This document shows, piece after piece, positions 44,341-64,000 of a DNA stretch of 64,000 bases. Numbering within the stretch: position 1 is the stretch's first letter; every line of letters starts with the position of its first letter. The notes beneath the pieces were generated by a model, which was not told the DNA's origin, searched no databases, and saw nothing but the letters and a program-made list of their open reading frames with translations. Origin of the DNA: Thermoanaerobaculia bacterium. Lineage in GTDB: Bacteria; Acidobacteriota; Thermoanaerobaculia; UBA5066. The DNA lies in NCBI GenBank assembly GCA_963821225.1, contig CAWGCY010000006.1:275217-339216 (forward strand), given 5' to 3'. A program made the translations under genes and the position numbers.

Positions 44341-45756
44341 ATGGCAGACACGACGTTTCCCAAACACAAGGTCCTGCCTTGGCCGGCGGTCCCGATCCCG
44401 ACACCCGACGAGGTCTACGCTGGCCTCACGGACCAGGCCAAGGAATATCCCCTCTCGCTCGAGAAGCAACTCAGGCAGAGCGAGAACTTCAAGAAGCCCG
44501 AGAACCTGACGACGGTTCGGGTCCTCGATCTGACCAAAGGGATGATCATCGGCAACTGGGCCTCCTCGATGCTTTCCGAGCTGGGCTCCGACACCATCAA
44601 GTGCGAGCCGCCCGACGGCGACCCGCTGCGGTGGCAGACGCCGTTCGGGCGCAAGGAGTACATGATCAAGGACGCCGAGACCGGCGAGCCGATCGGCCTC
44701 CACTTCCTCCACGAGATGAGGAACAAGCAGTCCATCACTCTCAATCTCGAGAAGCCGGAGGGCCGCGAGCTTCTCAAGAAGCTCGCCGTCCACGTCGACG
44801 TCCTGATCGAAAACTACGCGCCGGGGCAATTCGACGCGTGGGGAATCGGCTATCGGCAGCTCAAGGAGATCAACCCGAGGCTCGTCTATTGCTGGGTCGG
44901 GCAGAAGGGCCAGTGGGGCCCGTCCAAGGACAAGCCCGGTAACCTCGACCCGACCGCTCAGGCTTCCTGCGGATTCATCCACGGCACGGGCCTCCCGAAG
45001 GAGTTCGGCGGACGGCCCACCCGCTCGGCCATGTGGATGGCCGACCAGGTCGGCGGGACCACGGCGGCCATCGGGATCCTCGCCGCGCTCCTCTACCGCG
45101 ACAAGGTCTCGGGCAAAGGCCAGTTCGTAGAAGCGACGGCCGCGGAAGCCGTCATTCGCATCCTGGACTACAACTGGGGCTGGTACGGGTTCGACGGGAG
45201 CATCCGCCCCCGCTACGGCAACTGGGACCTGGCCATCAACATCTACGCCGTCAACCCATGCAAGGACGGCTATTTCATGGTAGGCGGCGGACACGATCGC
45301 CTCTGGTACCGGATCTGGCGGACGGTGGGGCAGACGCGTCCCGACCTCGAGGACGAGATTCTCGACGACAAGAGCCTCCGGGTGGTCACGGCGCGGCTTC
45401 CACACCTGAAGCAGGTGAAGACGTACACGGTCCTCGCCGACTGGCAGAAGGATCATTCCCGGGCAGACGCCATGCACCAGCTGCTCGCACAGCAGGTTGC
45501 GTCCGGCGGCGTGAACTACATCGACGAGGTCGCCGAAGACCCGCATTTCAAGTACAGAGGCCACGTCGACGAGTTCGACGACCGGCTCTACGGGAAAGTC
45601 CTCTATGGCACGTCGCCTTTGCTCGAGGACAAGGCTCCCGCGCGCCTGAAATGGATCGGCCGGCCGCTGGGATACGACAACGGAGAGATCTACCTGAAGC
45701 TGCTGGGACTTGGGCCCGCTGAGGTTGCGGGGCTCAAGAAGCGCGGCGTGGTTTAG
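44341..45756 (+). CDS. Family III CoA-transferase (CaiB/BaiF/Frc-like), subunit A
   Basis: 471 aa. RVLDLTKGMIIGNWASSMLSELGSDTIKCEPPDGDPLR...LIENYAPGQFDAWGIGYRQLKEINPRLVYCWVG...D is the family-III signature. Confidence 0.85.
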   Translation: MADTTFPKHKVLPWPAVPIPTPDEVYAGLTDQAKEYPLSLEKQLRQSENFKKPENLTTVRVLDLTKGMIIGNWASSMLSELGSDTIKCEPPDGDPLRWQTPFGRKEYMIKDAETGEPIGLHFLHEMRNKQSITLNLEKPEGRELLKKLAVHVDVLIENYAPGQFDAWGIGYRQLKEINPRLVYCWVGQKGQWGPSKDKPGNLDPTAQASCGFIHGTGLPKEFGGRPTRSAMWMADQVGGTTAAIGILAALLYRDKVSGKGQFVEATAAEAVIRILDYNWGWYGFDGSIRPRYGNWDLAINIYAVNPCKDGYFMVGGGHDRLWYRIWRTVGQTRPDLEDEILDDKSLRVVTARLPHLKQVKTYTVLADWQKDHSRADAMHQLLAQQVASGGVNYIDEVAEDPHFKYRGHVDEFDDRLYGKVLYGTSPLLEDKAPARLKWIGRPLGYDNGEIYLKLLGLGPAEVAGLKKRGVV

Positions 45757-45768
45757 GAGGCAGAAGAG

Positions 45769-47112
45769 ATGGCCACACCCGATTTCGAAACTTACTGTCA
45801 GCAGCTCTTCGACCACAAGACGGCTGCCGGCAAGCCGGAGGTCCTGAAGGGTTATCGCGTTCTTTCGTGCACGCAGTACATCCTCGGTCCTTCCTGCGCG
45901 AGCTATCTGGCCGAGCTGGGAGCCGAGGTCATCAAGATCGAGACGCCGAGGCGCGGCGAGCCGATGCGTCACACGACGCCGTTCAACGAGCCTCTCCTCT
46001 ACCCGCTTTCCCGCTGGGTGCCTGAGGCGGGGACGGGCCTCGGCTTCTTCGGGGCCAACCCGAACGAGGAGTTCATCAGTCTCGACTTCCACCGGCCGGA
46101 GGCGAGGCAAGCCATGTTGGAGCTGGCGGCCAAGTCGGACGTCATGGTCCAGAACTTCCGGCCCGGGACGTTCGACCGGTGGGGGATGGGATATCAGCAC
46201 TTTTCCAAGGTGAACCCCCGCCTCGTCTACCAATGGCTGGGGGGGTTCGGCGGCTGGGGGCCGGGACGCGTGCGTGCCTCCTACGACATCCTGGGCCAGG
46301 CAATGGGCGGCGCCTTCGGGATCACGGGCGAAGCCGCAGACCGGGGCGGGACGCCCTCCAAGCACACGATCTGGCTCGCCGACTACTGGGGCGGCATGAT
46401 GGCCGCGGTCGGCATCCTGGCCGCTCTCTACTATCGCGACACGGTCTCCGGCCAGGGTTGCTTCATCGAGTACTCGCAGGTGCACGGCGTCACGCGGATG
46501 CTCGAGTACGCTCTTCCGCTCTATGGCCGGTTCGGGGTTCGCCGGGAGCGGTGGGGTAACTGGGACACGGAGCTCTGCCCGCACGGGATCGTCCAGTGCG
46601 GCAAGTCGTCCTATCCAGGCTCCAAGAACCCGCAGGAGGCCGAGGTGGGGTACATCCTCGTCTCTGCCCATACGGACGAGGACTTCAAGAAGCTGTGCGG
46701 CGTGATCGGGGCGAAGGACCTCGGGACGTCACTCGCGAAGCACGACGAGCGCGTCAAGGCCGAGAATCAGAGCACCGTCTACGATGCCATCGAGGCCTGG
46801 GCGAAGGACAAAACCAAGGAAGACGTTGCAACCCTCCTCGACAAGGCCGGCCTCAACAACCAGCCCGTTTGGAACGCGAAGGAGGTTTCCGAGCATCCCC
46901 ACTGGAAGCTGCGCGGCGCGGTCCAGTGGATCGACGACCCGATCTACGGCGACCTCCACCATCAGGGTCCGGCCTTCAAGATGTCCGACACGCCTCCGCG
47001 CCTGAAGTGGGCGCTGAAGCCCGTGGGCACCGACAACGAGAGGGTCTACGGCCGGCTTCTCGGGTGGACGAAATCGAAGCTCGCGAAGATGGAAGAGATG
47101 GAGGTGATCTGA
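45769..47112 (+). CDS. Family III CoA-transferase, subunit B (paralog of upstream gene)
   Basis: 447 aa. RVLSCTQYILGPSCASYLAELGAEVIKIETPRRGEPMR...VMVQNFRPGTFDRWGMGYQHFSKVNPRLVYQWLGGFG. The adjacent paralog pair resembles heteromeric BbsEF-type CoA-transferases. Confidence 0.85.
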   Translation: MATPDFETYCQQLFDHKTAAGKPEVLKGYRVLSCTQYILGPSCASYLAELGAEVIKIETPRRGEPMRHTTPFNEPLLYPLSRWVPEAGTGLGFFGANPNEEFISLDFHRPEARQAMLELAAKSDVMVQNFRPGTFDRWGMGYQHFSKVNPRLVYQWLGGFGGWGPGRVRASYDILGQAMGGAFGITGEAADRGGTPSKHTIWLADYWGGMMAAVGILAALYYRDTVSGQGCFIEYSQVHGVTRMLEYALPLYGRFGVRRERWGNWDTELCPHGIVQCGKSSYPGSKNPQEAEVGYILVSAHTDEDFKKLCGVIGAKDLGTSLAKHDERVKAENQSTVYDAIEAWAKDKTKEDVATLLDKAGLNNQPVWNAKEVSEHPHWKLRGAVQWIDDPIYGDLHHQGPAFKMSDTPPRLKWALKPVGTDNERVYGRLLGWTKSKLAKMEEMEVI

Positions 47113-48556: not shown

Positions 48557-50224
48557 TTGAGTACGATTCCCGCGGACTACCTTCCGCCGAAGGAATTTCA
48601 ACCCGATCGGATCTACAAGCTCAAGGAGTTCGCGAGCTATCCGGATTCGCTGAACAGCACCGAGGAGCTGCTCGACAAGCAGATCGCGGCAGGCCGGGGC
48701 GACCGCCCCGCGATCCTGTTCGGTGACAAGGTCATCACGTACAAGCAGCTTCTAGGGGCCGCCTGCAAGATCGGAAATGCCCTCAGAAAGCTCGGCGTCG
48801 AGGAGACGGACCGGGTCATGCTCCGGTCGCCGAACGTTCCGCCCGCGCTGTTCACGAATTTCGGCGTCCTGAGGCTTGGGGCCGTGATGGTCCCGACCTC
48901 GCACATGCTCTCTCCGAACGAGATCGCGCACATCGCCAACAACGCCGAGGCGAAAGTGATCGTCGTGGCGGCCGCGTTCGCGGAGGGGGTCGTCAAGGCG
49001 CGGGCGAATCTCAAGACGACCAAGCACGTCATCGTCTTCGGCGGTAAGCCGGAGGAGCTGAAGGCGCAGGGGCTTCTCTGCTACGAGGAGCTCGTCGCGA
49101 ACGAGTCGCCGGCTCTCGATCCGGTCCGCCGTCCGCGCACGGCGGTCTCCGTCCTGCTCTACACATCGGGAACGACGGGCATGCCGAAGGGAACGGCGCA
49201 CTACATGGAAGAGGCGCTGATCGTCCCGGACACGATGGGAAAGTACGGGTGGAACGTACAGCCCGAGGACGTTCTCTGCGGCCCAGCTCCCATCTCGCTT
49301 GCCGGCGGGTACTCGACCGTGGCGACAATTCCATTCCGGTTCGGCGCCGCGGCTTCCCTGATCGCGAAGTTCACTCCCGAGGGGCTCTTCGAGCAGATCC
49401 AGAGCCACAAGGTGACGATCCTGAGTGCTCTCCCCACGGCCTACCGGAAGATGCTCGAGTTCGCGGGCACGGACAAGAAGTTCGATCTGTCGAGCCTTCG
49501 CGTGCTGACAGGGGGCGGCGAATCGCTGACGGCCAAGACGTATCTGGACTGGAAGGCCCGCTTCGGCCAGGAGATCTACGAGGGCCTCGGAACGACGGAG
49601 ATGATGTACGTCTTCGTCTCCAGCGTGGTCACCCGCAAAGTGAAGCCGGGGGCGATCGGCACCGCGGTCCCCGGGTACGAAATCCAGGTCATCACGGAAG
49701 AAGGCAAGGTCGCGAAACCGGGAGAGCTGGGAAGGCTCTACGCTCGCGGCCCCACGGGGACCCTCTATTGGCGTCCCCTCGAGGAGGGTGGAAATCTCCT
49801 CGAGAAACAGAAATCGCTCATCCGCGAAGGGTGGGTGCTGGTCGGCGACTTCTGCACGATGGACGAGGAGGGGTACCTCAGCTTCGTCTCCCGCCAGGAG
49901 GATCTGATCAAGAGCTCCGGCTACCGCATCGGTCCTGAGGAAATCGAAGACGCGCTTCTCAAGCATCCCGCCGTGGCCGACGCGGGCGTGATCGGCATCC
50001 CGGACCCCGTCCGGGGACAGAACGTCAAGGCCGCCGTCATCCTGAAACCCGGGATCACGCCGAGCGAGGAGCTGAAGAAGCAGCTCATCGACAGCTGCCG
50101 GGATCACGTCGCGATTTACAAGCTGCCGCGGATCGTGGAGTTCGTCACGGAGCTTCCGCGCACGCTGCAGGGGAAACTCCTGCGGCGGGTTCTGCGGGAC
50201 AAGGAGCCGGCGCCCACGAAGTAG
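48557..50224 (+). CDS. AMP-forming acyl/aryl-CoA ligase (benzoate/4-hydroxybenzoate-CoA ligase-like)
   Basis: 555 aa. LLYTSGTTGMPKGTAHY is the AMP-binding motif. YGTTE is approximated by EGLGTTEMMYVF. Also present are GWVLVGDFCTMDEEGYLSFVSRQEDLIKSSGYRIGPEEIE and the conserved C-terminal K (PRTLQGKLLR). TTG start with a GAGGAGG RBS. Confidence 0.85.
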   Translation: MSTIPADYLPPKEFQPDRIYKLKEFASYPDSLNSTEELLDKQIAAGRGDRPAILFGDKVITYKQLLGAACKIGNALRKLGVEETDRVMLRSPNVPPALFTNFGVLRLGAVMVPTSHMLSPNEIAHIANNAEAKVIVVAAAFAEGVVKARANLKTTKHVIVFGGKPEELKAQGLLCYEELVANESPALDPVRRPRTAVSVLLYTSGTTGMPKGTAHYMEEALIVPDTMGKYGWNVQPEDVLCGPAPISLAGGYSTVATIPFRFGAAASLIAKFTPEGLFEQIQSHKVTILSALPTAYRKMLEFAGTDKKFDLSSLRVLTGGGESLTAKTYLDWKARFGQEIYEGLGTTEMMYVFVSSVVTRKVKPGAIGTAVPGYEIQVITEEGKVAKPGELGRLYARGPTGTLYWRPLEEGGNLLEKQKSLIREGWVLVGDFCTMDEEGYLSFVSRQEDLIKSSGYRIGPEEIEDALLKHPAVADAGVIGIPDPVRGQNVKAAVILKPGITPSEELKKQLIDSCRDHVAIYKLPRIVEFVTELPRTLQGKLLRRVLRDKEPAPTK

Positions 50225-55375: not shown

Positions 55376-57256
55376 ATGCTCCCATCCATGGCCCGTCCGG
55401 CTGTCCTTTTCGCCGCTCTTGTTTCCTCGGCCCTGATGCAGGGAGATGCGCAATCGCCTGCAGCCCGCGCGGCGAATCTGCCGCGCGAACGGATCATGTA
55501 TACGACCCGTCGTCCAGCGAGCCTAAGGCTGTATCTCTTTGAGGCCGGATTCCCGCCGAAACCGATCACAGACGATCGGGCTCTCAATTACGATGCGACG
55601 TTTTCTCCTGATGGCCAGTGGGTCGTGTTTTGCTCGGAGCGTTCCGGAGATCCCCACCTCTACGCGATCGACCCGACCCATCCCGATCCGCCGAGCCAGT
55701 TGACGCGCGGACATTTCATGGACGCTGCGCCCGCGTTCACGCCCGACGGTAAGTCGCTGCTATTTGTGAGCGATCGCGAGGGAAACGCGGATCTGTTCAC
55801 GATGCCGTTCCGGCCGGACGATCCGGCGGCGGGAGATGAAGCCAGGATCTTGACCCGCAACCCGGCGGGCGATTTCCGTCCCGCCGTTTCCCCCGACGGC
55901 AAGAGGGTCGCCTTCAGCAGCGATCGCGATAGCGGAAAGAGCGGGAATATTTATCCGTATAAGGCCGAGATCTACGTGATGAACCTGAACGGATCGGACG
56001 AGCGACGGTTGACGAGGACCGATGCAATGAATGGTTCGCCCGCCTGGTCCCGCGATGGCAGCACGCTTTTCTTCTACTCGGACCGCGAAGACCGCAAAGG
56101 CGAAAGCTACCGTATCTGGGCGATGGACTCCGCTGGCAAGAACCAACGCGCGCTCACGCCGCGAGAGCTGTCGGCCTTCTCGCCCGCGGTCATGCCGAAC
56201 GGCCGCGTCGCGTTTACCGCGAAAAAGCCCGGCGGCTTCCAGGTCATGTCGGCGGCGGCGGATGGCTCGGACGTCCGCCTGGAAAGCGGGACACAGCCGC
56301 AATGCCAGGGCCCCGCTTTCGACCGTCAGAGCGACCGGATGGTCTGCGCGGGAAGGGGACCGGTCTCGAACGTGCTGCCGGTTGTCGCGCTCGGCGCTCA
56401 CGGTGAGGTGCGGTTGCCTGACCGCATCCTTGATGTTCAGGGGGTGCACTCCCTGTTCTGCTCGATCAGCCCCGACGGTCTCGAATTCGTGACAGGGCAT
56501 TCGAAGACGCCAGGCGATTTGAGCGACATGCGCTTGGTTGCTCATCGTCTCGAAGGCTCCGGTGACCGCGAGGTATTCCGTCCCGCGAAGGCCGCACCCG
56601 TGTGGGCGATGAGCTGGGCCCGCCACGCGGATTTGATCGCGTTCACGGTGGGACCGCCATTCGCTCCAGAAAACGCCGTCGTGGACATCTGGACAGTTCA
56701 CGGCGACGGGTCGGCCCCAACAAATTTGACGAAAGGAAAATTTCGCAACAACGCGTTTCCCGAACTGACTGCCGACGGTCGGGAGATCGTCTTTCGCAGC
56801 ACCCGTGACGGGAAGAAGGGCATTTACATGATGAGTTCGGACGGCACGAACGTGCGGCGCGTCGCGACGGATCCAGCGGGGGCCCTCGCCACGATGCCTT
56901 CGATTTCCCCGAATGGGGACATGATCGCGTTCTCGACTTTTCAGATTTTCGTCCAACCCCTGATCAACGGCAAACCGGACGGCAGCCCGCGGCTACTTCA
57001 GAAGTATTCACCGAGCGTCCATGCTCGCTTCTCACCGGATGGAAAATGGATCGTGTTCGCGTCGAGGCGCGCCTGGCTGAACGATGAGGCTCCGCTCTCA
57101 AACGGCGAGTCGCAGCCATACGGCGAGATCTTCGTCGCGCCGGTGGATGGGAAGTCCGAGGCGATCCGACTGACCCACAACAAGTGGGAAGACAGCGTCC
57201 CGTGCTGGGGTGTCATGCCGCCTTCCTCGATCGCGGCTCACGCGGGCGGTAACTAG
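55376..57256 (+). CDS. Periplasmic TolB-like beta-propeller (PD40/WD40-like repeat) protein
   Basis: Signal peptide. Repeated FSPDGQWVVFCSERSGDPHLY, FTPDGKSLLFVSDREGNADLF, VSPDGKRVAFSSDRD and FSPDGKWIVFASRR modules. Confidence 0.75.
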   Translation: MLPSMARPAVLFAALVSSALMQGDAQSPAARAANLPRERIMYTTRRPASLRLYLFEAGFPPKPITDDRALNYDATFSPDGQWVVFCSERSGDPHLYAIDPTHPDPPSQLTRGHFMDAAPAFTPDGKSLLFVSDREGNADLFTMPFRPDDPAAGDEARILTRNPAGDFRPAVSPDGKRVAFSSDRDSGKSGNIYPYKAEIYVMNLNGSDERRLTRTDAMNGSPAWSRDGSTLFFYSDREDRKGESYRIWAMDSAGKNQRALTPRELSAFSPAVMPNGRVAFTAKKPGGFQVMSAAADGSDVRLESGTQPQCQGPAFDRQSDRMVCAGRGPVSNVLPVVALGAHGEVRLPDRILDVQGVHSLFCSISPDGLEFVTGHSKTPGDLSDMRLVAHRLEGSGDREVFRPAKAAPVWAMSWARHADLIAFTVGPPFAPENAVVDIWTVHGDGSAPTNLTKGKFRNNAFPELTADGREIVFRSTRDGKKGIYMMSSDGTNVRRVATDPAGALATMPSISPNGDMIAFSTFQIFVQPLINGKPDGSPRLLQKYSPSVHARFSPDGKWIVFASRRAWLNDEAPLSNGESQPYGEIFVAPVDGKSEAIRLTHNKWEDSVPCWGVMPPSSIAAHAGGN

Positions 57257-57264
57257 AGGGCGGG

Positions 57265-59295
57265 CTACAAAGCATCTCGAGCGGACAGGACGATCCTGCT
57301 GTCCACGACCGTCAGACCCTTTTCGTGCACGATGACCGGATTCAGGTCCATCTCGTCGATCTCGGGATGTCGCGTCACGAGGCCGGAGACCTGAACGAGC
57401 AGCCGGCGGAGCGCCGCGACGTCGGCAGGCTTTCGTCCGCGCACACCCTCGAGCAGCTTCGCTCCCCGGGTTTCTCCGATCATCTCCGAGGCGTCCTTCT
57501 CGGAGAGGGGAACGATCCGGAAGGCGACGTCGCGGAAGACCTCGACGAGGGTGCCGCCGATTCCGAACATCACGGCATGGCCGAACTGGAGGTCGCGCGT
57601 CACGCCTACAATGATCTCGAGTCCGGGCGCAGCCATCGCGCTCACGAGCACGCCGGCGGATCGCGCCCCGACCCGTCGCACGACGCCCTCGAGGTCGTGA
57701 AAGGCCTTTCGGACTCCCGCCTCGTCTTTCACGTTCAGAAGGACACCTCCAACGTCGCTCTTGTGCGTCACGTCCGGAGAATTCATCTTGACGGCGACGG
57801 GATAGCCGATTGCGCGGGCGGCGGCGACAGCCTCGTCCTCGCTAACCGCCTGCCGTGAAGGCACGACACCCATCCCCTCTCGGGCGAGAAATGCCATGGA
57901 ATCGGCAGGGGTGAGCGACTTCCCCGTTCCTGGCGGAGCCGCGGGAGCGGAAGGCTGCTCGGGTTCCTGCGGGAAGCGATCCCGGGCGAAGCGGACATGG
58001 CAGGAATAGGCTTTGACGGCTCGGTCCGGCGTGGGAAAGACGGCGATCCCCTTCTCGTGAAGGAGTAACCGCTCGGCGCGCTCGACGTCAGCGCCGCCGA
58101 GATACGCCACGAGGTCGGGCTGTCCCGGCTCCAGGGCGTTCGAGGCGCCCGGGATCGGGTCCCCGAAGATCGTCAGGACGACGTCGTAGTGATTCCGCGC
58201 CTTCGCGATGACTTTGCGGAAGCACTCCGCATCGCCGTCGCCCGTGAGGTCGAGCGGGTTTCCGACGATGAAGTGGGAGGGCAGAAACTCCCGCAGCTGC
58301 GCTGCAAGGGGAGAGGGCAGCTGGCTGATCCGGAACCCGTTGTCCGCCGCGACGTCCGTGGCGATGATCGCGGATCCCCCGGAGCTCGTGACGATGAGCA
58401 TCCGGGGTCCGGCGGGAGCCGGCACGTAGGCCAGAGCTTTGGAGAAGTCGTAGAGCTCCTCGAGGGACGTCGCGCGGTGGATGCCGAATTGCCGGAAGAC
58501 GGCGTCGAAGATCTCATCCTTTCCGGCGAGCGAGCGGGTGTGCGATTCGGCGGCCTTACGCCCCTGCTCGGTCCTTCCTGACTTGAAGACCACGATGGGC
58601 TTCCGGCATGCCCGGACGGCGGACAGGAAGCGCGGAGCGTCCTTCACGCCTTCGATGTACAGCGTGATCACTTTCGTGTTCGGATCAGCGCCGAAGAACT
58701 CGATCAGGTCGGCCTCGTCGACGTCGATTCTGTTCCCCATGCTCACGAACGCCGAGAAGCCGAGTCTCTCCTCGGCAGCCCAGTCGATCAGGGCCGCCCC
58801 GACGGTCCCGCTCTGCGAGGCGATGGCCATGGCGCCCTTTCGGGTGATCAGCGGCCACGACGCGCAGAGGCCGTGGTGCGGATAGTTCACGCCCTGACAG
58901 TTCGGCCCGACCACGCGGATTCCGCACCGAGCTGCGTTCTGCTTGACCTCCTCCTGCAGGCGGGCGCCTTCCGACCCCGATTCGGCGAAGCCTCCTGTGA
59001 TCACGATGGCCGCCCGAACCTTCCGCTCGCCGAGCTGGAGGATGGTTCCGGGGACGGATGCCGCCGGAACGATGACGACGGCCAGATCGGTGCCGGACGG
59101 GATGTCGTTCACCGATTTGACGGACGGGACTCCGAGGATCGTCTCTCCCTTGGGATTCACGGGGATGACCGGACCGCCGAAGCCCGCGTCGAGGATGTTC
59201 TTGAAGATTGTGAACCCCAGTTTGCCCGGCTTTGCGGAGGCGCCGATGACCGCCATGGCATTGGGGCGAAAAAGCGCCTGCAGGGAGTCACTCAT
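57265..59295 (-). CDS. ADP-forming acetyl-CoA synthetase (NDP-forming acyl-CoA synthetase, fused alpha/beta domains; CoA-binding + ATP-grasp)
   Basis: 676 aa. The N-terminus MAVIGASAKPGKLGFTIFKNILDAGFGGPVIPVNP is a CoA-binding Rossmann. SQSGTVGAALIDWAAE is the catalytic His-loop region. The C-terminal ATP-grasp segment reads AIGYPVAVKMNSPDVTHKSDVGGVLLNV. GAGGAG RBS. Confidence 0.85.
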   Translation of the reverse strand: MSDSLQALFRPNAMAVIGASAKPGKLGFTIFKNILDAGFGGPVIPVNPKGETILGVPSVKSVNDIPSGTDLAVVIVPAASVPGTILQLGERKVRAAIVITGGFAESGSEGARLQEEVKQNAARCGIRVVGPNCQGVNYPHHGLCASWPLITRKGAMAIASQSGTVGAALIDWAAEERLGFSAFVSMGNRIDVDEADLIEFFGADPNTKVITLYIEGVKDAPRFLSAVRACRKPIVVFKSGRTEQGRKAAESHTRSLAGKDEIFDAVFRQFGIHRATSLEELYDFSKALAYVPAPAGPRMLIVTSSGGSAIIATDVAADNGFRISQLPSPLAAQLREFLPSHFIVGNPLDLTGDGDAECFRKVIAKARNHYDVVLTIFGDPIPGASNALEPGQPDLVAYLGGADVERAERLLLHEKGIAVFPTPDRAVKAYSCHVRFARDRFPQEPEQPSAPAAPPGTGKSLTPADSMAFLAREGMGVVPSRQAVSEDEAVAAARAIGYPVAVKMNSPDVTHKSDVGGVLLNVKDEAGVRKAFHDLEGVVRRVGARSAGVLVSAMAAPGLEIIVGVTRDLQFGHAVMFGIGGTLVEVFRDVAFRIVPLSEKDASEMIGETRGAKLLEGVRGRKPADVAALRRLLVQVSGLVTRHPEIDEMDLNPVIVHEKGLTVVDSRIVLSARDAL

Positions 59296-59367
59296 GTCGC
59301 TCCTCGAGATCGTGCTCGGCGAAGTCTATCCCGGCGGGGTGGTACGAGCGGCTAGACTCGTCGTCTG

Positions 59368-61260
59368 GTGTTGAGAGACCAGAGTCGCGCGGGTGAGAGT
59401 CCCTCTCCTGTCTCGATCTCGAGGCAGGAGATCCTCCGGGACCTGGAGAAGCTGATCCGGGATGGCGCTCTCTTCGGTGCCGACCGCGATCCGTCGATCA
59501 TGGACGCCGCCGAGTTCGACCGGGCGGTCGTCAAGAAGAAGGGGAAGGGAAGCCGGTTTCTCATCAGGAAGGTTCCCCGGAAGTCGAAGCTGCTGAGGCG
59601 GTGGGCGCGCCTCTTCGAGAACGCGGTCTCGCCCTGTGCGCTCCTCGACGCGCTCTCCGCCAGGATCCACGAGTTCGAGCACCGGGAGAAACTGCTCCTC
59701 TTCAGCAGGGACCGGATCATCTATGACACGGAGATCTTCCAGGCGGAGGAGAGCGTCGGCGAGCTGACGGTCAGTTTCGCATCCCTGCGGGACCCGGCCG
59801 CCGGGTTGCGCGGTTACTTTTCGGGCGAAAGGCTGCGGATCGTCTACATCGAGCACATCCACCTGACGGCGCAGAAGTCGGGATACGCCTCGGCTCTCTT
59901 CCGGCACTACGAGCGGCTTTTTCACGACCTCGGGTTCAACCAGTTCCGGCTCAGCGCCGCCCTCTCCGTCGGCAGGTATTACTGGGCCCAGGAGGGATTC
60001 GATTTCTCGGACAAATCGGAGGCCGGCAGGAGGAAGGCGGAGCTGAGAGCTCTCGTGAAGGAAAGGGACCTTCCCGTCCGGGAGGTTGAGATCGGACGTC
60101 TCAACCACGCCTACGATTTCGCCCGCTTCAGGAGAGAGCTAAAGATTCCCGCCTACCGCGACGCGGAAGGCGCTTACTCGTCGAAGGCCGACGCCCGCTT
60201 TAGCGAGGAAGTCTCCCTGCCGCTCGGGAAGGCGTTTCTTCTCTGCTCGGCGCCCTGGGAGGGGTACAAGACGATTTACACGAACACTCCGCGGATAACC
60301 GGCTTCGTGACCTCCAGGGATTATCTCTCGCACCGAACGCGCAGGGGCCACGTCGAGAGCCCCGGGCGGCTCCGCACGCTCCTCAAGGCGATCGACAAGC
60401 AGCGCCCGAGAAGGAGCCTCGTCGAGCTTTCGCCATACGTTCCCGACCTCGAGTTCCTCCAGGGGATCCACTCGGCGGAGTACCTGGCGAAATTTCGTGA
60501 GAGTGTCCGGAGGGGCGAGAAGGTTTTCTCCACGGCGGACTGCTCGATTTCCGCAGCGAGCTTCGACGTTGCGCTCCTGGCGGCGGGCGGGGTGATGGCG
60601 GGCGTGGACGCGGTCCTGAACGGGAGGGTCGACAACGTGTTCTGCGCCGTCCGGCCTCCCGGCCATCACGCGGGACGGGATTCCGCGATGGGCTTCTGTT
60701 TCATCAACAACGTCGCGGTGGGCGCGCTCTACGCGAGGGCGGTCTACGGCGTGGAGAAAATCTTCATCCTGGACTGGGACGTCCATCACGGAAACGGAAC
60801 GCAGGAGATCTTCGAGGGCGACCCCCTGACCTACTACTGCAGCCTCCACGAGCATCCGACGTTCTGCTTTCCCGGTACGGGCCGGAGGACGGAGCGAGGG
60901 ACGGGGGCGGGCGCGGGCTTCACAATGAACCTGCCTCTGAAGCCGCACACCAGGGACGAGGAGCTGATGGAGATCTTCGAGCGAGAAGTCGTCCCGGAGA
61001 TCGAGCGCTTCGAGCCCGACCTGATCATGATCTCGGCGGGCTTCGACGCGCACGAAAGGGACCCCATCGCCGACCTCGATCTCACGGAGAAGTCCTTTGT
61101 CCACATGACACGAAGAGTCTGCGAGCTGGCGGATCGATATTGCGGGGGCCGGATCGTGTCGGTCCTGGAAGGAGGGTACGACGGTCCCGCCCTCGCCTCG
61201 TCGGCCCTCGTTCACCTGAAGATTCTTCAGGGAAGGAGTGAAGAATGTTCGTCGGAATAA
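59368..61260 (+). CDS. Fusion protein: N-terminal GNAT-like (AcuA-like) acetyltransferase domain + C-terminal histone-deacetylase-superfamily (AcuC-like) deacetylase domain
   Basis: The N-domain RIVYIEHIHLTAQKSGYASALFRHYERLFHDLGFNQFRLSAALSVGRYYWAQEGFDF has a GNAT motif-A-like segment and the YYW element seen in AcuA. The C-domain carries the HDAC hallmarks RPPGHHA, DWDVHHGNGTQ and SAGFDAHERDP. The GTG start is uncertain; an ATG at 59500 is possible. Confidence 0.75.
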   Translation: MLRDQSRAGESPSPVSISRQEILRDLEKLIRDGALFGADRDPSIMDAAEFDRAVVKKKGKGSRFLIRKVPRKSKLLRRWARLFENAVSPCALLDALSARIHEFEHREKLLLFSRDRIIYDTEIFQAEESVGELTVSFASLRDPAAGLRGYFSGERLRIVYIEHIHLTAQKSGYASALFRHYERLFHDLGFNQFRLSAALSVGRYYWAQEGFDFSDKSEAGRRKAELRALVKERDLPVREVEIGRLNHAYDFARFRRELKIPAYRDAEGAYSSKADARFSEEVSLPLGKAFLLCSAPWEGYKTIYTNTPRITGFVTSRDYLSHRTRRGHVESPGRLRTLLKAIDKQRPRRSLVELSPYVPDLEFLQGIHSAEYLAKFRESVRRGEKVFSTADCSISAASFDVALLAAGGVMAGVDAVLNGRVDNVFCAVRPPGHHAGRDSAMGFCFINNVAVGALYARAVYGVEKIFILDWDVHHGNGTQEIFEGDPLTYYCSLHEHPTFCFPGTGRRTERGTGAGAGFTMNLPLKPHTRDEELMEIFEREVVPEIERFEPDLIMISAGFDAHERDPIADLDLTEKSFVHMTRRVCELADRYCGGRIVSVLEGGYDGPALASSALVHLKILQGRSEECSSE

Positions 61261-61895
61261 GGATGACGCGGAACGTGATCACGGTCTCCCGAGGGGACAC
61301 CTTGAAGTTTGCGAGCAATCTTCTGCACGAAAACCGGATCCACCAGCTCCCGGTCGTCGAAGGCGAGGAGTTGATCGGTTTCGTGTCGGGTACCGATATA
61401 CGCAACTCGACGTTCGAGGAGACGACGGTTTCCGGGACCGGCAAGATCGTCGTGAAGAACAAGACCGTCGAGGAGATCATGACGCGCGAGGTGATCACGG
61501 TGAGCCCGTGGGACACGGTCGAGGACGCGCTCCTGATCTTCCACAAGAGGAGACTGGGCGCCGTGCCGGTCGTGGAAGGAAAGAAGCTGGTGGGGATCAT
61601 CACGAAGGCGGACGTGCTCGCGGCGTTCTGCGACACCCTCAGGATCCAAGAGCCCGGGGTGAGAATCGAGGTGCTCCTCCCTCGCGAAGCCGGCTCCCTC
61701 ATTCACCTCGTGAAGAAGCTCGGGGAACTGAAGACCGAGATCCGGAGCCTGATCCTCTCTCCATTGAGGGACGGCTTCGTTGCCTTCATCCGGATCTCGA
61801 CGATCGACGTGGCGGCGGTGAAGAATGCGCTCAAAGACGCGGGCTTCACCGTTCCGGAACTCGCGGATTTTCTCGGGGGGACCGGCGAACGATAG
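61245..61895 (+). CDS. CBS-pair + ACT-like protein (AcuB-like) copy 1
   Basis: 216 aa. Two CBS motifs (ENRIHQLPVVEGEELIGFVSGTDI and KRRLGAVPVVEGKKLVGIITKADV), then an ACT-like C-terminus. GGAAGGAG RBS. It overlaps the upstream stop. Confidence 0.75.
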   Translation: MFVGIRMTRNVITVSRGDTLKFASNLLHENRIHQLPVVEGEELIGFVSGTDIRNSTFEETTVSGTGKIVVKNKTVEEIMTREVITVSPWDTVEDALLIFHKRRLGAVPVVEGKKLVGIITKADVLAAFCDTLRIQEPGVRIEVLLPREAGSLIHLVKKLGELKTEIRSLILSPLRDGFVAFIRISTIDVAAVKNALKDAGFTVPELADFLGGTGER

Positions 61896-61913
61896 AGAGA
61901 CTCGAGGTGTTAC

Positions 61914-62543
61914 ATGTTGATTCGAGACATCATGCGGAGCCCGGCCCTGGCCATCTCCGCGGATACGACGCTCCAGGATGCCTACCGGACGATGCGGGAG
62001 CACGGCATCCGGCACTTGCCGGTGCTCGAGGGCGAAAAGCTCGTCGGGGTGGTCACGGACCGCGATCTGAGGCTGGCGACCAGCTCGCTCGCGCCCTCAC
62101 CATTCTCGCCTGACAGCCGGGTCTCCGCGGTCATGTCTCAAGCGCCGCTGACGGCGGATGCCGCCGACCCGGTCGAGGACGCCGCACGCACGATGCGGGA
62201 GCGGAAGATCGGCTGCCTCCCGGTCCTGGACGACGGGCGGTTGATCGGGATCGTCACGGGCCTCGATCTGCTGGACGCGTTGGTGCGACTGACGGGCGTG
62301 CACAAGCCCTCGGGCCGCCTGGAAGTGCGCCTTCCCGACCATCCAGGCGAGCTCGCCCGGCTCACGAGCTTCGTCAGCCACCGCGATCTGAACGTCCACT
62401 CGATCTTGACCTATCCCGATGGTCCCGACTCGATTCGGACGGTCCTGCGCATCGGCTCGATCGAGACCGGGCTGCTCGCGCAGGACCTGCGCCGAGCCGG
62501 GTTCGACGTGCTTTGGCCCCCGGAGAAGCCGTGCCCTCGGTGA
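61914..62543 (+). CDS. CBS-pair + ACT-like protein (AcuB-like) copy 2
   Basis: 209 aa. EHGIRHLPVLEGEKLVGVVTDRDL and ERKIGCLPVLDDGRLIGIVTGLDL. GAGGTG RBS. Confidence 0.75.
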   Translation: MLIRDIMRSPALAISADTTLQDAYRTMREHGIRHLPVLEGEKLVGVVTDRDLRLATSSLAPSPFSPDSRVSAVMSQAPLTADAADPVEDAARTMRERKIGCLPVLDDGRLIGIVTGLDLLDALVRLTGVHKPSGRLEVRLPDHPGELARLTSFVSHRDLNVHSILTYPDGPDSIRTVLRIGSIETGLLAQDLRRAGFDVLWPPEKPCPR

Positions 62544-63670
62544 TCTACGCTCCCGCCTACCGGACGTACTCCTTCGGCGACGAGCATCCGTTCAGCCCTG
62601 TGCGAACCGACATGGTGCTCGATCTCCTGGGTGCGCTCGGGCACCGCGTCGAGACCGTCGAACCAAAGCCGGCGACGCGGGAGGATCTCCTCGACGTGCA
62701 CCAGGATGTGTACGTCTGCCGGGTGGAGAAACTGAGCGCGGGCGCTCTGGTCGTCGACGGACAGGAATACGGGCTGGGCACACAGGACACCCCCTCGTTT
62801 CCGGGTATGGACGAGGCGGCCAGGTGGATCGTCGGGGGCACCCTGCATGGCGCGCGCCTGATCTCGGAAGGGCGAGAGAAGCGCGTCCTTCAGCTCGGAG
62901 GGGGGCTGCATCACGCGCGCGGCAGGTTTGCGTCGGGTTTCTGCATCTACAACGACCTCGCAATCGCGATCAACTCCCTCACGCGGAAGGGACTGAAGGT
63001 GGCCTATCTCGACATCGACGTCCACCACGCCGACGGCGTTCAAGAGATCCTCTACGAGGATCCACGCGTCTTGACCGTGAGCCTTCACGAGTCGGGCAAA
63101 TACCTCTTCCCGGGGACCGGCGAGATTCGCGAGCTCGGCTCAGGAGCCGCCCGTGGCCTGAAGCTGAACCTGCCGCTGGAGCCGTTCACCGAAGGCGAGA
63201 GCTACCTGGAAGTTCTCGAGAAGGTGACCCCGGCCGCCCTGCGGTACTTTCGCCCCGACGTGCTCGTGGTCCAGGCGGGAGCGGACGCGCATTTCGACGA
63301 TCCGCTCTCCGATCTCATGCTGACCACGCGCGATTACGAGGTGATCTTCAGGCGAATCCTGGCCTGGGCGGACGAGTTCACCGCGGGCCGGGTGCTGTTC
63401 ACGCTGGGAGGCGGCTACTCCTTCCGCGCGGCGCCGCGCGTGTGGGCGATCCTCTACCTCGTGATGCACGACGTCGATGTGGTGCAGGAGCTTCCGGAGT
63501 CCTGGCGAAGCAGATGGAGCCACACTTCCGAAAGCGGGCTCCCGCGCACATTGCACGATCCGAATCCGTCGCACGCCGACATTGCCAACCGCTACGAGAT
63601 TTCACACCGCAACCGGCAGGTGGCCGAGAGGCTCCTGGACCTGACGCGGCAATACTGGTTCCCCAAGTAA
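62531..63670 (+). CDS. acuC: AcuC-like class-I-type deacetylase (acetoin utilization protein AcuC/histone deacetylase family)
   Basis: VIYAPAYRTYSFGDEHPFSPVRTDMVLDLL...GGGLHHARGRFASGFCIYNDLAIAI...DIDVHHADGVQ...AGADAHFDDPLSDL. A likely GTG start at 62531 overlaps the upstream stop. The ORF track lists TTG 62513. Confidence 0.8.
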   Translation: MPSVIYAPAYRTYSFGDEHPFSPVRTDMVLDLLGALGHRVETVEPKPATREDLLDVHQDVYVCRVEKLSAGALVVDGQEYGLGTQDTPSFPGMDEAARWIVGGTLHGARLISEGREKRVLQLGGGLHHARGRFASGFCIYNDLAIAINSLTRKGLKVAYLDIDVHHADGVQEILYEDPRVLTVSLHESGKYLFPGTGEIRELGSGAARGLKLNLPLEPFTEGESYLEVLEKVTPAALRYFRPDVLVVQAGADAHFDDPLSDLMLTTRDYEVIFRRILAWADEFTAGRVLFTLGGGYSFRAAPRVWAILYLVMHDVDVVQELPESWRSRWSHTSESGLPRTLHDPNPSHADIANRYEISHRNRQVAERLLDLTRQYWFPK

Positions 63671-63696
63671 GACAAGACGCGAACCGGTGCGCGCGC

Positions 63697-64000
63697 TCAA
63701 GACTTCGGCGCGATCACCCGTCCCGCGGCCCTCTCGCGTGGATAGAGAAGGACGTGTCGTCCACTCTGGATCTGGAAGATGCCCACTTCGTAACGCCGAG
63801 GGTCCCCGTGCTCGTCGAACTGCAGCCGCTCGAGTGGAAGCAGGAGGTCGGTTTTGCGAAGCGCGTCGCGGACCGCCTCCCGTTCCGGAGGGGCCGACGT
63901 GCGAGAAGCCCTCTCCAGCGCCGCCAGAACCGCGCGCGCCGCCGTGTATCCGTACATGCTGAGCGGCGCCGGAGGATGTTTGAACTCCCGGACGAATCCG
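63697..64000 (-). CDS. Branched-chain amino acid-type ABC substrate-binding protein (LivK family), C-terminal fragment, gene continues beyond window end
   Basis: The C-terminal peptide ...MYGYTAARAVLAALERASRTSAPPEREAVRDALRKTDLLLPLERLQFDEHGDPRRYEVGIFQIQSGRHVLLYP is a typical type-I periplasmic binding-protein ending. The frame is open to the window edge. Confidence 0.6.
   Translation of the reverse strand, partial: GFVREFKHPPAPLSMYGYTAARAVLAALERASRTSAPPEREAVRDALRKTDLLLPLERLQFDEHGDPRRYEVGIFQIQSGRHVLLYPRERAAGRVIAPKS

Follow-up and report, generated by a model that had tools for sequence, protein, structure and literature searches.

A gene in which a GNAT-fold domain is joined to a class II zinc deacetylase was found in a Thermoanaerobaculia bacterium (GenBank assembly GCA_963821225.1). 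It lies at 59368..61260 on the plus strand of a 64,000-nucleotide stretch of contig CAWGCY010000006.1, which is the whole stretch that was analyzed and is called the window here. The chances are about even that the encoded protein is a single-polypeptide writer and eraser of N-acetylation, with an eraser half that is gated by an AcuB-like sensor and with ties to acyl-coenzyme A (acyl-CoA) metabolism. The targets of such a writer-eraser would probably be protein lysines rather than other amines. An initial reading of the letters alone (the sequence-only reading) had described this gene as an AcuA-like acetyltransferase fused to an AcuC-like deacetylase. The parts of the gene are as follows.

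59368..61260, plus strand: the full fusion gene, GNAT-fold domain plus class II zinc deacetylase (ORF list, full-length homologues)
59419..60282, plus strand: N-terminal GNAT-fold domain, residues ~18-305
59488..59553, plus strand: Lys/Gly-rich loop, residues 41-62, ...VVKKKGKGSRF... (predicted local distance difference test score, pLDDT, below 50 in both models)
60274..60300, plus strand: short conserved linker, residues ~303-311, IYTNTPRIT (alignment, AlphaFold model, frame check)
60298..61233, plus strand: class II HDAC-type zinc deacetylase domain, residues ~311-622 (Pfam, PDB matches, alignment)

The fusion gene and its two domains

The gene begins with GTG and has 630 codons. The continuous open reading frame (ORF) of 630 amino acids that had been proposed at 59368-61260 is present exactly, and the motifs quoted for it are all in the translation. 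The protein contains HLTAQKSGYASALF, YYWAQEGF, RPPGHHA, DWDVHHGNG, GFDAHERDP, and EGGY with the catalytic Tyr604. Between 60200 and 60400 the plus frame alone is open, and there is no stop at the junction. G+C content at third codon positions (GC3) is 0.84 in the N-half and the C-half alike, the same as in the flanking genes. Two antisense ORFs (59326-60108 and 60139-61215) were rejected as genes. Their high GC sits at codon position 1, so they are mirror-image artifacts of a GC-rich gene.

The join is also present well outside of the window. More than 100 protein clusters align over at least 97% of the length of the fusion, with identities down to 58%. In a scan of species-representative genomes, the N-terminal domain and the deacetylase are in the same frame and 0-6 nucleotides (nt) apart in approximately 60 of 71 loci. 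A frameshift or missed stop near 60250-60320, for which the sequence-only reading had proposed a check, is excluded because the join is in frame in approximately 60 species-level genomes. The possibility that the fusion is an artifact (a sequencing frameshift, a missed stop, or a misassembly joining two genes) is thus vanishingly small, given these independent assemblies, the full-length clusters, a nearly invariant linker, uniform GC3 over the junction, and a single open frame; no support for it was found, and its sole candidate point is a frame break at the junction of one of the 71 loci (L059), which is more likely an error in that assembly.

The domain boundary that had been placed near residue 305 is supported. 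The linker residues are nearly invariant in alignment A2, which consists of 66 fused sequences. The full-length AlphaFold (AF2) model has a pLDDT of 83.7 and a predicted template modeling score (pTM) of 0.84, and pLDDT is ~80-95 over the junction. Because the junction is confident in this model, the prediction suggests that the two domains are held in a fixed arrangement. The linker is probably rigid. The poorly predicted segments of the full-length model are residues 41-62 and 499-517.

The first of these segments is rich in lysine and glycine. K57 is invariant in alignments A1 and A2. G59, K60, and G61 are conserved in at least 90% of sequences in A1, as is K56 in A2. The loop could be a self-modification or regulatory site. 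It is also possible that the protein carries an acetyl-lysine switch at K57 of the flexible KKKGKG stretch and that its deacetylase site reads this switch. As an acceptor sequence, the 41-62 loop is loosely histone-tail-like.

The N-terminal half has a GNAT fold in its predicted model. This AF2 model, built on 78 sequences, has a pLDDT of 83.5 and a pTM of 0.80 and displays the mixed alpha/beta order of the family (beta1-alpha1-alpha2-beta2-4-alpha3-beta5-alpha4-beta6/7). The top 50 Foldseek matches of the model are all GNATs or GNAT-fold-containing proteins, with a probability of ~0.99 for most, and they include Elp3, NatD, Gcn5/PCAF, and Naa50/60. The GNAT-like N-half of the sequence-only reading, for which structure prediction had been named as a check, was therefore borne out.

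In GNATs, motif A holds the pyrophosphate of acetyl-CoA. Here, this motif, (Q/R)-x-x-G-x-(G/A), is found between beta4 (residues 155-166) and alpha3 (residues 173-187) as Q169-K-S-G172-Y-A174. It is kept in fused, stand-alone, and distant phage-type relatives. A motif B-like segment, YYWAQEGF (residues 204-211), fits a helix plus a strand, and PLGKAFLL is found at residues 285-292. G172, Y173, A174, Y204, Y205, and W206 are invariant in the 66 fused proteins.

The N-terminal domain does not belong to AcuA, as had been proposed. Membership was rejected on an hhalign probability of 0.14% against AcuA of Bacillus subtilis (PDB 9g7f_C / 2q04; the reference sequence was verified against PDB 9g7f_C). 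AcuA structures are also absent among the structural matches listed for the domain. Searches against Pfam and NCBIfam gave nothing significant, with no curated GNAT model matched and a weak match to IDM1_C at an expectation value (E) of 0.22. A profile search of PDB sequences found no relative, only a chance lipocalin match (E 0.23). From the predicted model, the N-half appears to be a divergent GNAT-fold, acyl-CoA-dependent N-acyltransferase of an unnamed clade.

The C-terminal half appears from its sequence to be a catalytically intact class II (HDAC6/HdaH-like) zinc deacylase. Pfam Hist_deacetyl matches residues 328-619 (E 2e-93). In the 66 homologues, there is no variation at the His dyad (H433/H434), at the ligands of the zinc (D471, H473, and D560), or at the catalytic Y604 of EGGY. 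The top PDB sequence matches are HDAC6 (1e-99, strongest on catalytic domain 2) and PA3774/FB188 HdaH (~1e-61 to 3e-61), and the PDB matches listed are class II HDACs and bacterial HDAC-like amidohydrolases. The full HDAC catalytic set that had been noted at residues ~305-630 is thus present, but the AcuC-like label given with it is not retained. AcuC is a class I enzyme, and the class I protein of this window is encoded by a separate gene (62540-63670), to which the fused deacetylase has 30-40% identity (tblastn).

The residue after the conserved D-P of the fused deacetylase is Ile (GFDAHERDPI). This position is occupied by a hydrophobic Leu in HDAC6 and by the polyamine gatekeeper Glu in HDAC10. 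A glycine-rich loop of the deacetylase, CFPGTGRRTERGTGAGAGF (residues 499-517, 60862-60918), has a pLDDT below 50, and in the sequence match it is aligned with the equivalent segment of HDAC6. A role in substrate or partner binding that is specific to the family is possible for this loop.

The AcuB-family partner and the gene neighborhood

Three genes follow the fusion gene on the same strand.

61245..61895, plus strand: AcuB-family Bateman (2 x CBS) + ACT-like protein, 216 amino acids
61914..62543, plus strand: second AcuB-family protein (CBS pair + ACT), 209 amino acids
62540..63670, plus strand: class I AcuC-type deacetylase, 385 amino acids (Pfam Hist_deacetyl 8.9e-81)

The first of these overlaps the stop of the fusion gene by 16 nt, and its ribosome-binding site, GGAAGGAG, is within the end of the fusion gene. 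The two genes would be translationally coupled. A scan of 57000-64000 returned 0 promoter-like sites, and the terminator-like sites did not exceed the shuffle expectation. In all of the fused loci whose flank is long enough, the next gene downstream is of the AcuB type. The best PDB match of the 216-amino acid protein is AcuB of Geobacillus stearothermophilus (1.9e-25, residues 7-203), and that of the second protein is also AcuB (8.3e-41, residues 2-202, full length). Pfam detects CBS in both proteins and ACT only in the second. Both have the makeup of the AcuB family, a Bateman module with a C-terminal ACT domain in ~210 amino acids and similarity to solved AcuB. The sequence-only reading had considered the adjacent CBS-ACT proteins to be plausible regulators, and their best matches to AcuB structures over the full length are in agreement with this. 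According to two papers from 2026 (PMC13121692, PMC13039410), AcuB is a Bateman-ACT dimer with adenine nucleotides and Ap4A as ligands, and in its AMP-bound state it uses the ACT domain to inhibit AcuC.

The stand-alone AcuC that had been noted 1.3 kb downstream is the class I gene, which is ~1.25 kb away. Its single-domain PDB matches are class I (HDAC2, HDAC8, and Clr6/Rpd3); by summed score, the two-domain HDAC6 chains are on top of its list. The start of this gene is probably GTG 62540, and the listed TTG 62513 is probably too far upstream. With this GTG, the gene shares the four letters GTGA (62540-62543) with the end of the AcuB-like gene before it, whose stop is TGA. In Bacillus, acuB and acuC also overlap by 4 nt, at an ATGA junction (PMC13039410). 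The second AcuB-type gene and the class I AcuC are found together only in the window and in its four closest relatives (L007-L010).

On the other side of the fusion gene is a divergent gene for an acyl-CoA synthetase, and further genes of acyl-CoA metabolism are located upstream.

57265..59295, minus strand: ADP-forming (nucleoside diphosphate- or NDP-forming) acyl-CoA synthetase, 676 amino acids (Pfam CoA_binding, Succ_CoA_lig, and ATP-grasp_5)
55376-57256, plus strand: PD40/beta-propeller protein, 626 amino acids, N terminus with a hydrophobic segment; located between the alpha/beta hydrolase and synthetase genes
48557-50224, plus strand: AMP-forming acyl-CoA synthetase, 555 amino acids, with C-terminal PRTLQGK (a PX4GK motif)
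44341-47112, plus strand: two tandem family III CoA-transferase genes

The ADP-forming synthetase gene is separated from the fusion gene by 72 base pairs. Its best PDB match is an ADP-forming 4-hydroxybutyrate-CoA ligase (8.5e-117), and the SHT histidine motif is kept. The synthetase is divergent and upstream in all 17 of the assessable Acidobacteriota loci. Among the Deferrimicrobia, a homologue with 53-57% identity is convergent and right after the CBS gene in 4 of ~35 assessable loci. Since the link occurs in two different gene arrangements, a functional connection between the fusion and the synthetase is supported.

Pat also has a GNAT-fold module associated with an NDP-forming acyl-CoA synthetase-type protein, and Pat structures match the ADP-forming synthetase at 6e-92. 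A split Pat, in which the neighboring synthetase would be a Pat-like regulatory domain acting in trans, was rejected as the main explanation because the neighbor has not lost the catalytic histidine motif and is more similar to the true ligases than to Pat, and because most Deferrimicrobia loci lack the synthetase. In Pat/PatZ (class I-alpha), the GNAT and the NDP-forming synthetase-like domain are in one chain, whereas the synthetase here is a separate, divergent gene on the opposite strand. The GNAT here also belongs to another clade and is fused to a deacetylase. In several Acidobacteriota relatives (L001, 11163-13943; L002, 11492-14332; L011; L015; L021; and L073), a Pat-like protein of 926-946 amino acids (N-terminal GNAT plus an NDP-forming synthetase-like domain), followed by a PAS protein, is encoded 3-5 kb from the N-domain gene.

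The PX4GK motif holds the regulatory lysine that is acetylated in AMP-forming acyl-CoA synthetases. The AMP-forming synthetase at 48557-50224, ~9 kb upstream, is a candidate substrate. A Liv-type ABC transporter, a FlK-like acyl-CoA thioesterase, and an alpha/beta hydrolase are also encoded upstream in the window. Together, the CoA-transferases, the thioesterase, the ABC transporter, and the two synthetases form a dense island of acyl-CoA metabolism. The PD40 gene looks like an insertion that is specific to the window genome, because the hydrolase and synthetase matches are just ~30 nt apart in L006 and L008.

Distribution and relatives of the N-terminal domain

All of the loci come from uncultured genomes of two phyla, Thermoanaerobaculia/Acidobacteriota and Deferrimicrobia-type ("Deltaproteobacteria"). 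The nearest relatives of the window are Thermoanaerobaculia. The named public records are called "histone deacetylase" or "AcuC-like" only, so the N-terminal half is invisible to annotation.

The N-terminal domain also occurs as a separate protein of 290-335 amino acids. In four Acidobacteriota loci (L001, L002, L020, and L073), it is located at the same site with the same synthetase gene adjoining, and at this locus no deacetylase or CBS gene follows it. These stand-alone domains have 63-72% identity and the same motifs as the fused forms. Some of the "stand-alone" entries that are on short contigs may be truncated. In a neighbor-joining tree, the fused Deferrimicrobia forms are basal and the stand-alone forms are nested among the fused Acidobacteriota forms. 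This nesting suggests that the deacetylase part was lost secondarily in the stand-alone lineages. A more distant group of stand-alone paralogues (45-49% identity) is found in the same genomes as a fused copy. No conserved neighbors were found in the gene context of these paralogues (P0216 and P0218).

An exhaustive HMMER search with the N-terminal domain over 1.84 billion representatives returned 362 proteins. The distant relatives outside of the close family align to profile positions ~167-308 only. Those that are not from phages range from ~250 to more than 5,000 amino acids, with repeated modules in some. They are mostly without a Pfam domain, and one of them (P0261) reaches Acetyltransf_1 weakly, at 23 bits. 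None of the distant relatives examined has a deacetylase domain. Residues 172-304 of the window's N-terminal domain also match two phage protein families, phrog_25452 (E 2.1e-07) and phrog_27103 (E 2.1e-04), with which they have a common signature. To our knowledge, these phage proteins have no known function. The signature shared in the alignment is (Q/R)xxGx(G/A) ... A-x4-G-x-Y-x-W-A-x2-G-F-D-F ... P-L-G-K-A-F-L-L ... W, and motif A recurs in the distant relatives. Because the relatives have this signature in common, the N-half can be assigned to a wide GNAT clade that lacks annotation and in which the cofactor loop is retained. The clade is defined by the C-terminal two-thirds of the domain (59881-60279), and proteins P0236-P0368 belong to it. 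Two small relatives, P0261 and P0267, weakly match the phage "minor head protein" family phrog_4611.

Proposed function and comparison with known systems

In the proposed writer-eraser, the GNAT half would acetylate one or more protein lysines from acetyl-CoA and the deacetylase half would take the acetyl mark off. The AcuB-like partner, with adenine nucleotide, would bind and inhibit the deacetylase half, and the net direction would follow energy charge and acetyl-CoA supply. The likely targets, from gene context, would be acyl-CoA-forming enzymes. We infer that both halves are active and share a substrate, that a protein lysine is this substrate, and that the partner controls the eraser half. 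A more specific form of the proposal is appreciably less probable and is offered tentatively. In it, a common set of metabolic targets, of which acyl-CoA synthetases are the most plausible, would have its lysines both acetylated and deacetylated by the one protein. Acetyl-CoA would act on the GNAT half and adenylate charge, via the AcuB-like partner, on the deacetylase half, and the two inputs would set the direction.

Several observations weigh against a gated writer-eraser. Curated GNAT models do not match the N-terminal domain at the sequence level. E162 and H163 are at least 90% conserved only in the alignment that is rich in stand-alone forms, so a general base is not confidently assignable. 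The structural matches of the domain include a pseudo-acetyltransferase, the C-domain of O-GlcNAcase (3zj0). Acetylpolyamine, propanil, and dimethoate hydrolases are among the PDB matches of the C-half. The enzyme that AcuB is known to regulate is class I rather than class II, so AcuB-type gating of a class II deacetylase would be an extrapolation by analogy. Lastly, the link to an acyl-CoA synthetase is not universal, as no such gene adjoins ~31 of the ~35 Deferrimicrobia loci that could be assessed.

The first two of these points also fit a protein that is only a regulated eraser, whose GNAT-fold half is not a transferase but would control or target the deacetylase half, by sensing acetyl-CoA/CoA or by docking the substrate. 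A sensor would conserve the acetyl-CoA loop too, and a rigid linker suits allosteric coupling. However, Tyr204 and Tyr205 of the motif-B helix are invariant, as is expected of an active GNAT. The domain also occurs alone, at 63-72% identity, where no deacetylase at the locus is available for it to target. Because this stand-alone form is well conserved, the N-terminal domain appears to have a function of its own. Furthermore, the clade is present in phage proteins and as repeats in very large proteins, and such effectors are presumably enzymes in most cases. The sensor or docking role is therefore rather unlikely. A related suggestion of the sequence-only reading, that the GNAT-like half is a degenerate recognition module, is weakened in the same way by a loop conserved clade-wide and a domain that persists alone.

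A small-molecule substrate is less probable still. The protein could acetylate and deacetylate an amine such as a polyamine, or it could perform an acyl swap, in which the deacetylase removes acetyl and the GNAT adds another acyl group. Some class II HDAC-like enzymes of bacteria are amidohydrolases of small molecules, and many GNATs act on small molecules too. The solved relatives of the C-half include the HDAC10 polyamine deacetylase, an acetylpolyamine amidohydrolase, and xenobiotic amide hydrolases, and the neighborhood is rich in acyl-CoA metabolism (CoA-transferases, thioesterase, alpha/beta hydrolase, and the Liv-type ABC transporter). However, the best matches of the C-half are lysine deacetylases (catalytic domain 2 of HDAC6 and PA3774), and the polyamine enzymes score far lower. 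The Ile after D-P resembles the Leu of HDAC6 and not the gatekeeper Glu of HDAC10. The conserved partner is of the AcuB type, which is known from a protein-acetylation system, and no biosynthetic cluster is conserved around the gene across the phyla.

The closest known arrangement to the proposed writer-eraser is AcuABC of B. subtilis. Both have one operon that encodes a module with an acetyltransferase fold, a zinc deacetylase, and a nucleotide sensor of the AcuB family, and the operon is divergent from the gene for an acetyl/acyl-CoA-forming enzyme (acsA in Bacillus). The overlapping stops and starts of acuB and acuC are seen here too, and the window also holds a canonical AcuB-AcuC pair downstream. 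However, the writer and eraser are on one polypeptide here and the GNAT is not of the AcuA family. AcuC of B. subtilis is class I, whereas the deacetylase of the fusion belongs to class II. The sensor gene comes last here (writer-eraser-sensor) but between the other two in Bacillus (writer-sensor-eraser), and the divergent neighbor is ADP-forming rather than AMP-forming. The deacetylase half is most like PA3774 (Pseudomonas aeruginosa), FB188 HdaH (Bordetella/Alcaligenes), and catalytic domain 2 of HDAC6, with which the C-half aligns over its whole length and shares RPPGHHA, DWDVHHGNG, GFDAH..DP, and EGGY. The solved or reviewed enzymes of this group that were checked are described without a GNAT-fold N-terminal domain or an AcuB-type partner.

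Opposing activities on one protein, with a direction set by metabolites, are well established in the GlnE adenylyltransferase/removase, the AceK kinase/phosphatase, the HPr kinase/phosphorylase, and the Rel synthetase/hydrolase. The fusion would follow the same design principle, but with acetylation chemistry, unrelated folds, and a bifunctionality that is predicted here. For reversible lysine acetylation in bacteria, the writers and erasers that have been described are separate. In our literature searches, a GNAT-deacetylase fusion was found described nowhere. The classification of bacterial lysine acetyltransferases into types I-V has no writer-eraser fusion architecture (PMC6456759), and a GNAT-deacetylase fusion is unmentioned in a survey of bacterial deacylases (PMC11532494) and in the AcuB papers (PMC13121692, PMC13039410).

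Only recently has the coordination of opposing acetylation activities been addressed, in the AcuB-AcuC pair of Bacillus. The fusion, which is conserved and has an AcuB-type sensor of its own, is a compact system in which to study how a futile acetylation cycle is avoided. It also defines an unnamed GNAT clade that is present in phage proteins as well. AcuB-type control would extend to class II deacetylases and to phyla without a cultured model. If the more specific form of the proposal is true, acetylation would for the first time have a counterpart to GlnE, AceK, and other bifunctional switch enzymes.

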